From the NCBI GenBank assembly GCA_013178315.1, contig JABLWX010000003.1:2855-66854 (forward strand): a stretch of 64,000 nt of DNA, in the 5' to 3' direction. This document shows, in pieces, positions 10,148 through 16,572 of the stretch. The translations under genes and the position numbers were made by a program. Source of the DNA: Candidatus Aminicenantes bacterium (lineage in GTDB: Bacteria; Acidobacteriota; Aminicenantia; Aminicenantales; Saccharicenantaceae). Position 1 is the first letter of the stretch. Every line of letters begins with the position of its first letter. The notes below the pieces were generated by a model. It had not been told where the DNA came from. It searched no databases and saw only the letters and a program-made list of their open reading frames with translations.

Positions 10148-10708
10148 ATGTTAAAAAAGATGAGAGGATTCACCCTCATCGAAATGCTCATCGTGGTGGC
10201 CATCATCGGTATCCTGGCTGCGCTGCTAATCCCCAACGCCATGTCTGCCCTGCAGAAGGCCAAACAGAAGGGTACAGTTAAGGACATCAACACGATTGCT
10301 ACTGGTCTGATGGACTATGTTACTGATAAGGGAGTTGCTCCAGCTTCAGGCACAGGACAGCTTTCCGGTGGCGACCAGATCATTACTGATTTACAGGGAT
10401 TTTATCTGAAAGTATTCCCGGCTAAGGACCAGTGGGGCCATTATTTCTATGTTTATTGCCAGGCTACCAACTGCGGCGGCAATGCTTTTGGCATAGAACT
10501 TCCCTCTGGTCAGGATTGGGCTGATGACGATTTTATTGTAGGTTCATCGGGAAGAAATGAAGCAACTACTGATATTACCTACAATACTTCGGATCCATCG
10601 CTAAACCTCTATGAAGTAACTTCCATGCAAGACTTTAATAAAGAAATTGTTAACTGGAACGGGAGCGTCGTGATTGGCCCCCGCACCGCTGCTGGCACTG
10701 GCACCTGA
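10148..10708 (+). CDS. pilA: Type IVa major pilin (prepilin with N-terminal methylation motif)
   Basis: Leader MLKKMRG / FTLIEMLIVVAIIGILAALLIP (G-1, F+1, E+5). Strong RBS AAGGAGG. The C-terminus is ...GPRTAAGTGT. Confidence 0.85.
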   Translation: MLKKMRGFTLIEMLIVVAIIGILAALLIPNAMSALQKAKQKGTVKDINTIATGLMDYVTDKGVAPASGTGQLSGGDQIITDLQGFYLKVFPAKDQWGHYFYVYCQATNCGGNAFGIELPSGQDWADDDFIVGSSGRNEATTDITYNTSDPSLNLYEVTSMQDFNKEIVNWNGSVVIGPRTAAGTGT

Positions 10709-10741
10709 GGCCCATAGTATCTGATATTGTATTGAGCGCAA

Positions 10742-10769
10742 GGGGCGGCTTCGGCCGCCCCCTTTTTTT
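10742..10769 (+). terminator. Rho-independent terminator after pilA
   Basis: GGGGCGGC-TTCG-GCCGCCCC followed by C and TTTTTTT. Confidence 0.8.
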
Positions 10770-11006
10770 AGGTCCGAAAGGCGCCCGGGCAATAAATGTT
10801 CAGTGTTTTTCATCATAATATTTTTTTTTGGGTTTGATTTTTGGATAAAATAGAGAAAAGCATGAACCAAAACGAAGAAGGCCAGGCCCCCGCATTGGTG
10901 CCATGTGACTCTTCAAAAGAATCAGGTATAAAAAGTTCCAAAGCTTATTAACCATAAATCGGGATTGTCCTGTGAGGAATCAACCAGGTTAAACAGGAGA
11001 TAGCCA

Positions 11007-14631: not shown

Positions 14632-15543
14632 TCACCTCAGATAAAGGATAAATAGTATCGAAATTATCCAGAGTATAATATTGACCAGCAGCGGTTTATC
14701 CCTCAGGATCATTTCCTCCGGGGTTCCGCCCTGGTCTTTTTGATGGACGAGGTAGAGATACCGAAAAATGCCATAGAGGACAAAGGGTGTGGTAAAGATA
14801 AGGTTCCGGCTGCCAAATTTTCTCACGGTGTCATCGGATATTGTGTAGAGGCAGTAGGCGATCAGGGTGGAGGCGGTTACCACGGAAATCATCTGGTCCA
14901 GCAAATACGGATTATACTCTTTCAAGCTTGGTCGGTGTTCCCGGGCTTTATCTACCAGGATAAGAAATTCATGCCTCCGCTTGGTCATGCTCAGGAAAAG
15001 GGCCAGGAGTATGGTGCAGATGATGAGCCACGATGAGATTTCCACCTGTATGGCTAAGGCTCCGCCTATTACTCTGAGAAAAAAGCCAGCGGCTACCATG
15101 AATATATCTATGATTACCACGTGCTTAAGCCAGGAAGAATAGAGAATCTGCAGGGCCACATAACTCAGGACAATCAGAAGGAAGTTCAGGTTGATGGAAA
15201 AGGCCAGGGCCAGAGAGGCGCCGGCGGTCACAGCTATTATGACGTAGGCGCTTCTTTTTGTAAGTTGCCCTGAGGCCAGGGGCCGATTCTTCTTGATGGG
15301 GTGGAGTTGATCTTCTTTTAAGTCACAAAGGTCATTGAGAGTGTACAGGGCGCCAGATACCAGGCAAAAACTTATAAAGGCTTTAAGGCTTATTATTAAG
15401 GAATTGACATCGAATAGTTTAACTGAAAAAACGAGGGGAACAAAAACAAAGAAATTCTTCGTCCATTGTTTAGGCCGGAGGGTCCTGACTGCAGCTAACA
15501 TCTTCTGTCGCCTTATTTTATTAAAACTAAAGGAAGAAAACAA
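14632..15543 (-). CDS. UbiA-family prenyl-phosphate phosphoribosyltransferase homologue (decaprenyl-phosphate phosphoribosyltransferase-like)
   Basis: 8-9 TM helices, N-terminal LRPKQWTKNFFVF motif and NDLCDLKEDQLHPIKKNRPLASG (NDxxDxxxD), as in the Rv3806c-type subfamily of UbiA enzymes. The start may instead be the internal Met 15. Confidence 0.65.
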   Translation of the reverse strand: MFSSFSFNKIRRQKMLAAVRTLRPKQWTKNFFVFVPLVFSVKLFDVNSLIISLKAFISFCLVSGALYTLNDLCDLKEDQLHPIKKNRPLASGQLTKRSAYVIIAVTAGASLALAFSINLNFLLIVLSYVALQILYSSWLKHVVIIDIFMVAAGFFLRVIGGALAIQVEISSWLIICTILLALFLSMTKRRHEFLILVDKAREHRPSLKEYNPYLLDQMISVVTASTLIAYCLYTISDDTVRKFGSRNLIFTTPFVLYGIFRYLYLVHQKDQGGTPEEMILRDKPLLVNIILWIISILFILYLR

Positions 15544-15564
15544 AAATTATAGGTAGCAACAAGC

Positions 15565-16410
15565 CTAATCGGTTATTCCCCTGAAATAGGGTTCGAACTG
15601 CAAAGGTGGGAAACCTCTGGCCAGAAGGCCTGTTCCGAAATGGGTCCAGATTAACCTGCTGATAAATAAATTAAAGCGGATCTGGTTCGCCCTTTCTCTT
15701 ATGGCTCTAAACCCAGACTGCAGGTTGGCCAAACCCACGTCATGAATGACAACGATACATTTGGGTGCGAGGTAAGGAGATATCCCGTTGAAATCTTTAT
15801 ATATCTGATCATTCGTATGCAAGCCGTCGATAAAAATCAATTCATAACCACCCGTATCGATGACTTCCTTTCGGACTGCCCTGGGGGTATCTTCTGGAGA
15901 AAAGCCAATGGTCAGCCTGACTGATGGATAGTACCTTTCGGCTATTTTCCTAGTTAAGTTGGATCCCACCTTGTTGTCTTCTCCTTCTATTTCGGCATCA
16001 ATTACGTCTACCTTTGCTTCCCCAAAAACTTCAGCCAAACAAAATGTGCTGTAACCGAAGGCGTTCCCAATTATAAATATTGACCGCGCCGGGAAGATGT
16101 CGCGAATCGCCAGAAAAAGCATCAGGTCTGTTCCATGAAATCCGCCCCCCGTATCGAGGTTCCTGTTCCTTTTCTTGTCGTGAATGATGGTTGCCCCCAG
16201 CTGATTCTTGGTTATTATATAGCCGAGTTCCTCATAAATTTTGTTCACTCTTAATGCGATCCTCGCCGCTCCAACTCTTAATGTTTCTACCTTTTGAGCA
16301 CTTAAGGAGTAGCCGCATAGTGACTGGTTCAGAAAAAATGAAATCGTGATAAAAAGAAAAGCTGATTCGAGAGCATGTCGATTTCTTCTGAAAACGGATA
16401 TATTCATCAT
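15565..16410 (-). CDS. Class I SAM-dependent methyltransferase-like protein with N-terminal TM/signal segment
   Basis: FIIGNAFGYSTFCLAE .. VDVIDAE .. IFIDGLHT .. VVIHDV pattern of O-methyltransferase-type Rossmann folds. I chose the start at ATG 16410 (RBS GGAAGGA) rather than 16488. Confidence 0.5.
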   Translation of the reverse strand: MMNISVFRRNRHALESAFLFITISFFLNQSLCGYSLSAQKVETLRVGAARIALRVNKIYEELGYIITKNQLGATIIHDKKRNRNLDTGGGFHGTDLMLFLAIRDIFPARSIFIIGNAFGYSTFCLAEVFGEAKVDVIDAEIEGEDNKVGSNLTRKIAERYYPSVRLTIGFSPEDTPRAVRKEVIDTGGYELIFIDGLHTNDQIYKDFNGISPYLAPKCIVVIHDVGLANLQSGFRAIRERANQIRFNLFISRLIWTHFGTGLLARGFPPLQFEPYFRGITD

Positions 16411-16572
16411 TTCCTTCCTGATTATCTTTTCTAGATAGTATATTTTAGGGTTAGTGCTTAAGTAAAGGCTGTATGTTACTGTCTCCATTCGCCCGGCCCT
16501 GTTTATTCCAGGCGGAATTTAGTACCTTTTCAAGTGAAACGATAAGAAAGCAAATTGTGGTAAAATCTTGGG

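Follow-up and report, generated by a model that had tools for sequence, protein, structure and literature searches.

The genes considered here lie between type IV pilus genes and a plsC-type acyltransferase gene in a 64-kb stretch of DNA (the window) from an Aminicenantes genome (Acidobacteriota). The major pilin gene, pilA, is followed on the same strand, after 298 nt, by a gene for a 797-aa GT-C glycosyltransferase of the YfhO family, and a minus-strand run of genes for a methyltransferase, a UbiA homologue and a DUF362 protein converges on these two (Table 1). A preliminary description of this DNA had reported these five open reading frames (ORFs), together with a sigma-54 promoter and an intrinsic terminator for pilA, and all of them are present; the Pfam assignments of the five products all exceed the gathering thresholds. 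The pilA promoter is a perfect site and the sole exact match to TGGCAC-N5-TTGCW across the window. By their domains, PilS and PilR are a two-component, sigma-54 activator pair, whose genes form the conserved left flank of a variable interval; plsC forms its right flank, as it does in many Aminicenantes loci. GC content drops to 0.43-0.46 over 10-16 kb, with flanks at about 0.55. As annotated, from TTG and GTG starts, the UbiA and DUF362 genes share 4 nt at their junction; judging from homologues, both starts probably lie too far upstream, by 7-14 codons. The window also contains an outer-membrane beta-barrel protein gene, and the organism is diderm.

Table 1 Positions of the features in the window and in loci from homologue scans (L-numbers).
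Feature	Locus	Position	Strand	Description
pilB, pilT, pilC	window	2592-6693		upstream of pilS; Pfam T2SSE, T2SSE, T2SSF
pilS	window	6825-8111	+	Pfam 6TM_PilS/HisKA/HATPase
pilR	window	8127-9542	+	Pfam Response_reg/Sigma54_activat/HTH_8
sigma-54 (-24/-12) promoter of pilA	window	10067-10082	+	TGGCACggtacTTGCA / TGGCACGGTACTTGCA
pilA	window	10148-10708	+	186 aa; Pfam N_methyl + T2SSG
pilA intrinsic terminator	window	10742-10770	+	8-bp all-GC stem, 4-nt loop, T7 run
YfhO-family GT-C gene	window	11007-13400	+	797 aa; Pfam YfhO
DUF362 gene	window	13532-14635	-	Pfam DUF362 2.8e-25; last gene of the methyltransferase-UbiA-DUF362 operon
UbiA-homologue gene	window	14632-15543	-	303 aa; Pfam UbiA; NCBIfam NF008977; predicted polyprenyl-phosphate phosphoribosyltransferase
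methyltransferase gene	window	15565-16488	-	Pfam Methyltransf_24 5.3e-13; class I S-adenosylmethionine (SAM) type
plsC-type acyltransferase gene	window	16573-17277	+	Pfam Acyltransferase
que genes	L033	8234-9865, 17633-17986
que genes	L037	2269-2655, 12263-12892
que genes	L017	7589-7972
second DUF362 paralogue	L010	12213-13184
second DUF362 paralogue	L011	2546-3520
second DUF362 paralogue	L014	12201-13172
second DUF362 paralogue	L012	12240-13379
second DUF362 paralogue	L028	8877-9887

The UbiA homologue had been proposed to group with the Rv3806c-type phosphoribosyltransferases and not with quinone, haem or chlorophyll prenyltransferases, and this assignment holds. Both motifs attributed to it, LRPKQWTKN and NDxxDxxxD, were found (the latter as NDLCDLKED, residues 70-78). 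The sole NCBIfam models scoring above their curated cut-offs were those for decaprenyl-phosphate phosphoribosyltransferase (NF008977, 292.3 bits against a cut-off of 234; NF008978, 215.2 against 207), and the protein aligned end to end with the Rv3806c structure (PDB 8j8j, E 1.8e-35). Eleven of the 13 tested Rv3806c residues, defined by structure and mutagenesis (PMC10994848), are identical (R22, K28, Y70, N73, D77, K87, R90, Q135, Y138, K143 and K191) and include ligands of the ribose, 5-phosphate and pyrophosphate of phosphoribosyl pyrophosphate (PRPP) and of the lipid phosphate. The remaining two are Y157, replaced by F, which is a natural variant (PMC10994848), and K208, replaced by P with the neighbouring R207 kept. 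Since the phosphoribose and pyrophosphate ligands are not conserved in prenyltransferases (PMC10994848), their conservation is a real test of membership, and it places the window protein with Rv3806c. The alternative of an ordinary aromatic prenyltransferase of the quinone, haem O or chlorophyll type, with a block unrelated to sugars, could appeal to membership of the UbiA superfamily and to weak matches to many prenyltransferase models, but these reach only 21-56 bits against cut-offs of 180-390; together with the ligand residues, this effectively refutes a reading that we regard as extremely improbable. By these sequence features the UbiA homologue is a polyprenyl-phosphate 5-phosphoribosyltransferase (PPPRS) of the Rv3806c type. 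It has no extra domain and no room for the fused phosphatase of the Citrobacter enzyme.

For the 797-aa protein, the score against Pfam YfhO (PF09586) was 37.9 bits, above the gathering threshold of 28.5, with the match limited to residues 698-756 at the C-terminal end of the model. NCBIfam gave weak matches to PgfM1/PgfM2, also at the C-terminus. PF09586 is precomputed for most of the 120 listed GT-C homologues; the named ones all come from Aminicenantes/Acidobacteriota metagenome-assembled genomes, and many are labelled 'YfhO family protein' by NCBI. A sequence-only search of the PDB returned only spurious poly(ADP-ribose) glycohydrolase matches (E about 0.015), and the same kind of search with the DUF362 protein and its profile gave no match, so that fold comparison was needed for both. 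The AlphaFold2 (AF2) model of the glycosyltransferase (predicted local distance difference test (pLDDT) 75.7, predicted template modelling score (pTM) 0.80) found as top Foldseek matches AftD (6w98, E 1.5e-5), ArnT (5ezm), yeast STT3 (8age), AglB, Pmt4 and Pmt1/2, mostly with probabilities of 0.84-1.00.

In its architecture the protein joins an N-terminal polytopic catalytic module to a periplasmic domain (approximately residues 479-745) and a terminal transmembrane (TM) helix. Just after TM1 (approximately residues 9-31), a comparison of 16 sequences reaching down to 42% identity shows no change at R39, D40 or E45 and almost none at E38; by the positive-inside rule, the loop that carries these residues is predicted to face the periplasm. 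The loop at 250-300 is poorly modelled yet is the best-conserved segment (55-98% identity), and the periplasmic domain is the least conserved (32-48%), the pattern expected if the parts for donor binding and catalysis are conserved and an attached acceptor-binding domain diverges. On the Pfam score, the modelled fold and the acidic residues of the predicted periplasmic loop, the protein is assigned as a GT-C glycosyltransferase of the YfhO family, in agreement with the preliminary description. YfhO enzymes use C55-P-sugar donors (PMC5836110), and by analogy with this family behaviour, and from its gene neighbourhood, the window enzyme would use a polyprenyl-monophosphate sugar.

A scan of one genome per species gave 38 loci with a relative of this glycosyltransferase, nearly all of them from Aminicenantes. 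By tblastn and ORF clustering, the frame pilB-pilT-pilC-pilS-pilR-pilA ... plsC is conserved and its interior is highly variable (in high-GC loci the greedy ORF caller sometimes took the antisense strand, and the resulting clusters c22, c24, c49 and d2 were ignored). The proposed linkage of the GT-C gene to pilA is conserved across Aminicenantes: where the glycosyltransferase is at least 40% identical to that of the window, 18 of 25 loci have pilA no more than 3 kb away, and the exceptions are mostly loci that end at contig ends. The two genes are co-directional in the window and in L001-L005, and convergent in L007, L008, L010-L015, L026 and L035. A single conserved, operon-like unit of all five genes was considered and given up, as gene content varies across loci: UbiA and DUF362 genes accompany the GT-C gene in 10 of the 38 loci, most Aminicenantes loci being without UbiA, the methyltransferase is confined to two lineages, and in L033 a UbiA-DUF362-GT-C cluster occurs without pilA within 10 kb.

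The UbiA, DUF362 and GT-C genes nevertheless recur together in several arrangements. All three lie on one strand in L017 and L037, with 68 nt between DUF362 and the GT-C gene; in L015 four genes of the same strand, UbiA-DUF362-c15-GT-C, lead up to the 3' end of pilA; and the convergent layout of the window is found again in L001-L005 and L123. The glycosyltransferases of L015, L017, L033 and L037 are only 38-41% identical to that of the window. Several arrangements across such diverged enzymes, with the gene order recurring in independent lineages, argue for a functional UbiA-DUF362-GT-C module that can occur apart from pilA. The module of one Aminicenantes lineage sits between the queuosine-precursor genes queC-queD-queE and queF, the end of queF overlapping the start of UbiA (Table 1). 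A functional link to these 7-deazaguanine genes was considered and rejected, as neither the window nor other Aminicenantes nor any of 80 metagenomic loci have queC, queD, queE or queF beside the cassette; the association is probably lineage-specific synteny reflecting an insertion site.

The pairing of UbiA with DUF362 extends beyond this phylum. Homologues annotated as coming from Nitrospirota, Thermodesulfobacteriota, Omnitrophota, Schekmanbacteria, Thermoplasmata and Hodarchaeota share 75-80% identity with the DUF362 protein. Of the 80 loci obtained in the metagenome scan for DUF362, 64 extended at least 900 nt upstream, and in 19 of these a gene for an Rv3806c-type UbiA protein lies directly upstream on the same strand, at gaps of 11-121 nt. 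UbiA is upstream in 18 of 33 loci in which identity to the window's DUF362 protein is 70% or more, and in 1 of 31 below. Neighbours of the cassette encode SMR/EamA-like four-helix proteins, Wzy_C, PMT_2 GT-Cs, GT4, GT9 and GDP-mannose dehydratase; the SMR/EamA-like genes, present beside the cassette in L047, L048, L052, L059 and L033, are candidates for flippases. Database matches of this DUF362 subfamily number more than 8000, and such conservation is unusual for a protein without known function. A second recurrent context was seen in metagenomic loci that lack UbiA (L086, L089 and L101, at about 4-6 kb; L088, L090 and L103), where split transketolase genes precede DUF362 and LPG_synthase_TM and PHP-domain genes follow; an archaeal locus without UbiA has sugar-nucleotide modification genes instead.

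These observations can be combined into a scheme in which the products of the methyltransferase-UbiA-DUF362 operon would work at the cytoplasmic face of the inner membrane. There the UbiA enzyme, by homology, would convert PRPP and polyprenyl phosphate to polyprenyl-phospho-5-phosphoribose, the DUF362 protein would then act on this lipid-linked pentose, which the methyltransferase may also methylate. A 5-phosphatase and a flippase would be supplied from elsewhere or by one of the island proteins. The glycosyltransferase, whose fold and catalytic loop fit such a role, would take the flipped polyprenyl-phosphate-pentose in the periplasm and glycosylate an extracytoplasmic acceptor, either the major pilin or else an envelope glycan or another surface protein. 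On balance, and with modest confidence, we favour this scheme of a lipid-linked pentose donor and transfer by the glycosyltransferase as a whole. It agrees with the donor and the periplasmic transfer of the preliminary description, a mechanism well supported by the GT-C fold, the identity of the PPPRS and the gene order; for the pilin as acceptor, also proposed there, the evidence is adjacency and analogy.

The interval in which these genes lie is itself highly variable. Besides GT-C genes of the YfhO type, it holds in related genomes genes for GtrB-like GT2 proteins, several PMT_2 GT-Cs (some with tetratricopeptide repeats), B12-radical-SAM proteins, methyltransferases, PAP2 proteins and a SIS isomerase. 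Defence and mobile genes occur in the same interval just beyond UbiA, at 15234-19295 of L002 (HerA-like ATPase, NurA and the Druantia protein DruA), and at 14801-15847 of L001 and 14582-15631 of L036 (ImmA/IrrE protease with a helix-turn-helix (HTH) partner), which indicates that the surface-glycosylation genes occupy a hot spot resembling a defence island. The closest genome, L036, illustrates the turnover. Its flanks are 84.5% identical in nucleotide sequence, and between them positions 9986-15631, corresponding to 11007-16556 of the window, where similarity resumes, hold only a frameshifted remnant of the GT-C gene (the first 400 nt or so), followed by genes for a methyltransferase, a flavin adenine dinucleotide (FAD) amine-oxidase-like enzyme, a 657-aa PMT_2 GT-C and the ImmA/IrrE-HTH pair in place of the island. 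The two genomes differ by a recent cassette swap. Across it, PilA is 69% identical, the upstream flanking genes 90-99% (pilS/pilR 90-93%) and plsC 83%. We therefore regard the pilA-plsC interval as a low-GC, swappable surface-glycosylation island. In two related loci (2388-4802 of L001 and 7368-8378 of L003) a membrane protein with a sulfatase/alkaline-phosphatase fold and the architecture of LtaS/EptA/PptA is encoded between pilA and the GT-C gene. In Neisseria, PptA adds phospho-forms to pilin.

If one acceptor has to be named, the major pilin is the likeliest, and it would be modified at its Ser/Thr-rich C-terminal tail or in surface loops; we put this forward as a quite possible but tentative assignment, by adjacency and by analogy. 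PilA has a GspG-like globular domain and ends in ...PRT-AAGTGT, and Aminicenantes pilins share a conserved WNGxxVxGPRT followed by a short variable tail of Ser, Thr, Ala and Gly. The pilin and the periplasmic domain of the glycosyltransferase diverge much faster than their neighbours. The assignment is suggested by these shared variable tails and this joint divergence, by the adjacency of the GT-C gene to pilA, which persists through gene turnover and inversion, by the position of the genes, which is that of tfpO and tfpW in Pseudomonas aeruginosa, and by the weak PgfM1/PgfM2 matches, to models that bear the names of protein-directed YfhO relatives. The same machinery might instead serve an envelope glycan (lipopolysaccharide (LPS) core, O-antigen or exopolysaccharide) or a non-pilin surface protein, the gap between pilA and plsC being merely a recombination hot spot, and to this we give appreciable weight while thinking it on the whole doubtful. 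The hypervariable gene content and the defence genes of the interval would be explained in this way, the module of L033 has no pilA nearby, characterised YfhO enzymes glycosylate teichoic acids (PMC5836110), and the UbiA-DUF362 cassette adjoins a heptosyltransferase gene (GT9) in Omnitrophota and Wzy_C or GT4 genes in other metagenomic loci. Against this reading stand a GT-C gene that stays beside pilA in two orientations while the rest of the interval turns over, pilins with a conserved Ser/Thr tail, and pilin-specific transferases in exactly the same position in P. aeruginosa.

Several further observations weigh against a pentose-dependent system dedicated to the pilin. Among the 13 loci whose glycosyltransferase is 39% identical or less, just L028 has it adjacent to pilA. 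The GT2, PMT_2, B12-radical-SAM and SIS genes of the interval would suit an LPS or exopolysaccharide locus too, and in other phyla the cassette lies within LPS-like clusters with GT9, Wzy_C and GT4. In the window, pilA has its own strong terminator and is a separate transcription unit, and no second sigma-54 site was found before the GT-C gene. The island contains no flippase, no 5-phosphatase (HAD, PAP2), no DprE1/DprE2 (FAD oxidase and short-chain dehydrogenase/reductase), no GtrA and no MATE protein; DprE1/DprE2, PAP2, HAD, GtrA and MATE were likewise not found among 37 window ORFs scanned against Pfam, a scan that took in about two thirds of the long ORFs, with its gaps mostly at 43-64 kb. 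Because the glycosyltransferase mostly occurs without UbiA, its donor need not be a pentose. The two convergent units could then be unrelated, the glycosyltransferase using another donor, such as a polyprenyl-phosphate-hexose made by a GtrB/CsbB-like GT2 elsewhere, and the product of the methyltransferase-UbiA-DUF362 operon feeding another GT-C. The 28 of 38 loci that have the glycosyltransferase without UbiA, many with a GtrB-like GT2 instead, agree with this, as does the pairing of the UbiA-DUF362 cassette with unrelated GT-C families in other phyla. We nevertheless judge it clearly unlikely, given the single-strand arrangements of L017 and L037, with their 68-nt gap, and the four-gene run of L015, across glycosyltransferases as diverged as these, and given that the island of the window has no other GT-C and no GT2 among its genes; moreover, the GT-Cs of pentofuranose systems are reported to be donor-promiscuous (PMC11127046).

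The DUF362 protein is cytoplasmic, with an aromatic and basic C-terminal helix, and its family is placed in Pfam clan CL0471 together with DUF2088/LarA (PMC11770544). The best Foldseek matches of its AF2 model (pLDDT 72.9, pTM 0.82, the conserved loops being modelled at low confidence) were LarA, Mar and LarA-like nickel-pincer racemases, at probabilities of 0.95-0.99 with TM-scores of just 0.3-0.4. The family motif LPxxKTH-x9-KNxFG places H166 and K176 at the spacing of LarA His174-x9-Lys184, and lines up without gaps with ESH174FFAGFSGGRK184SVLPG. Profile-profile comparison with LarA by hhalign was not significant with either a 12- or a 61-sequence alignment (probability 0.1), though its path pairs H166/K176 with His174/Lys184, and equivalents of LarA Arg75, His108 and His200 could not be placed. 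Relatedness to LarA is therefore supported at the level of the modelled fold, and equivalence of the cofactor sites is suggested by motif spacing, clan membership and fold. The LarA superfamily (DUF2088) comprises nickel-pincer-nucleotide 2-hydroxyacid racemases and epimerases, with which the DUF362 protein shares clan, top fold matches, and the H-x9-K spacing with its flanking pattern; the substrate there is a 2-hydroxy acid, whereas that of DUF362 would likely be a lipid-linked sugar.

A second DUF362 paralogue, about 25% identical to that of the window and keeping the same family motif, adjoins the GT-C gene in many Aminicenantes loci (Table 1). It carries a twin-arginine export signal (MKRREFLK...), which suggests that it is exported already folded and probably with a cofactor bound. 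On its pilA side, most of these loci also encode a 288-aa protein without a Pfam match (cluster c14). From the gene order of this widespread cassette it could be proposed that the window's DUF362 protein, rich in His, acts directly on polyprenyl-phospho-(5-phospho)ribose and replaces the 5-phosphatase and/or an epimerase of the DprE1/DprE2 or ORF13 type. This would make it a new class of enzyme that diversifies lipid-linked pentoses, in this case for a YfhO-type GT-C acting on a type IV pilin. In its boldest form this would be a tethered-cofactor epimerase working by internal hydride shuttling; such chemistry needs no diffusible redox cofactor, which would explain the Tat-exported paralogues beside the same glycosyltransferase. 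We consider this proposal unlikely as it stands.

There is precedent for every proposed step in two kinds of system (PMC11127046 and the TfpW preprint). Three-component extracytoplasmic pentofuranose systems have been described as ORF15-ORF14-ORF12 of Citrobacter youngae O1/O2 (Kelly et al. 2024, PMC11127046). Like the window block, they combine a UbiA-type phosphoribosyltransferase acting on PRPP, a lipid-linked pentofuranose as periplasmic donor and a GT-C with an extra periplasmic domain, with optional auxiliary enzymes that diversify the pentose, in a modular, horizontally mobile cassette. In contrast to these systems, the synthase of the window has no fused HAD phosphoribose-phosphatase and the island has no MATE or other flippase; the constant partner of the synthase is DUF362, which is unmentioned in that paper; the acceptor there is an O-antigen, whereas the window genes adjoin pilA; and the GT-C there belongs to GT136, the match found for that of the window being to Pfam YfhO. 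The block would work like the three-component systems but fails two of their defining features, the phosphatase and the flippase, and is not a standard member.

In P. aeruginosa Pa5196/PA7, TfpW is responsible for D-arabinofuranosylation of the pilin, with tfpW-tfpX downstream of pilA and a further set of genes, PsPA7_6246-6249 (TfpW preprint). The window shares with this system a GT-C gene that directly follows the one for the major pilin, an Rv3806c-like phosphoribosyltransferase and a strain-variable pilin locus. It differs in that the island has no DprE1/DprE2, GtrA-like or TfpX-like gene, in its host phylum, Acidobacteriota, and in having its donor-synthesis genes beside pilA; the PsPA7_6246-6249 set is named separately in the preprint, which does not give its position relative to pilA. 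The mycobacterial decaprenylphosphoryl arabinose (DPA) pathway (Rv3806c, Rv3807c, DprE1/DprE2, Rv3789 and the Emb/Aft GT-Cs) begins with a homologous enzyme whose key residues are kept here, and AftD is the top structural match of the window's glycosyltransferase; the PAP2 phosphatase, the FAD/NAD epimerase pair and the small flippase of that pathway are not in the island, which has the LarA-fold DUF362 protein instead. A YfhO-family GT-C and a polyprenyl-monophosphate sugar are also features of lipoteichoic-acid glycosylation by CsbB/GtcA/YfhO in Gram-positive bacteria and of adhesin glycosylation by the Pgf proteins (PgfS/PgfM1/PgfE/PgfM2) of Streptococcus mutans, and related Aminicenantes islands carry a CsbB/GtrB-like GT2, two of them also an LtaS/EptA/PptA-like transferase. 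Unlike those systems, that of the window belongs to a diderm organism and has a PRPP-dependent UbiA protein and not a GT2 as donor synthase, and the direct Pfam match covers just the C-terminal 60 residues or so.

Given these precedents, the idea of pentofuranosylation is in itself no longer novel, and the earlier statement that the gene combination is undescribed has to be narrowed: the general kind is known (PMC11127046, TfpW), and full-text searches of one paper library revealed neither the specific YfhO/DUF362 combination nor any paper that connects YfhO to the glycosylation of pilin, or a phosphoribosyltransferase to DUF362. What is new is the conserved PPPRS-DUF362 cassette, the YfhO-type partner, and a variable pilin locus like that of Pseudomonas in an uncultured phylum. 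If the proposed scheme is correct, the range of glycosylation with PRPP-derived lipid-linked pentofuranose, so far Proteobacteria, Firmicutes and Actinobacteria, would gain an uncultured phylum that lives in anoxic sediments and the subsurface, and such chemistry would be paired with a YfhO-family GT-C for the first time. DUF362, a very large family of unknown function whose subfamily is about 75% identical between bacteria and archaea, would gain a concrete biochemical context, namely the processing of polyprenyl-phospho-ribose beside a phosphoribosyltransferase that lacks its usual phosphatase and epimerase partners. The pilA-plsC interval resembles the strain-variable pilin accessory locus of Pseudomonas and has defence genes nearby in related genomes, and pilus glycosylation directed against pilus-specific phages may therefore be far more widespread than the few cultured examples suggest.

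The methyltransferase is an accessory gene and not a conserved member of the module. It was found just in the window, in the close relatives L123 and L124, where it is frameshifted (in L123, at 6827-7752, within a G-run), and partly in L030. The Pfam match upholds its identification as a methyltransferase. The membrane anchor also claimed for it was rejected as a firm statement: the N-terminus (RRNRH-ALESAFLFITISFFL-...SLSAQ) resembles a signal peptide, with a hydrophobic core of about 11 residues that is below the TM threshold and leaves the topology ambiguous. If the protein were exported, its SAM-dependent domain would sit outside the cytoplasm.

Elsewhere in the window, a SAM synthetase at 21473-22672 matches Pfam PF01941 (AdoMet_Synthase), which we take to be an archaeal-type family. 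It is followed at 23024-25348 by a class I/II aminotransferase of 774 aa, whose C-terminal extension (about 390 aa) has no Pfam match and which is kept beside plsC in many Aminicenantes loci. A transposase-like ORF (27196-28527; HTH_28/HTH_29 and an rve_3 integrase core) adjoins a gene at 28551-30185 for a GH28/pectate-lyase-like beta-helix protein. GC content is low a second time (0.42) at 37749-39994, where two ORFs lie on the minus strand (368 and 378 aa), one with a weak match to the DUF5128 six-bladed beta-propeller and the other without a Pfam match.

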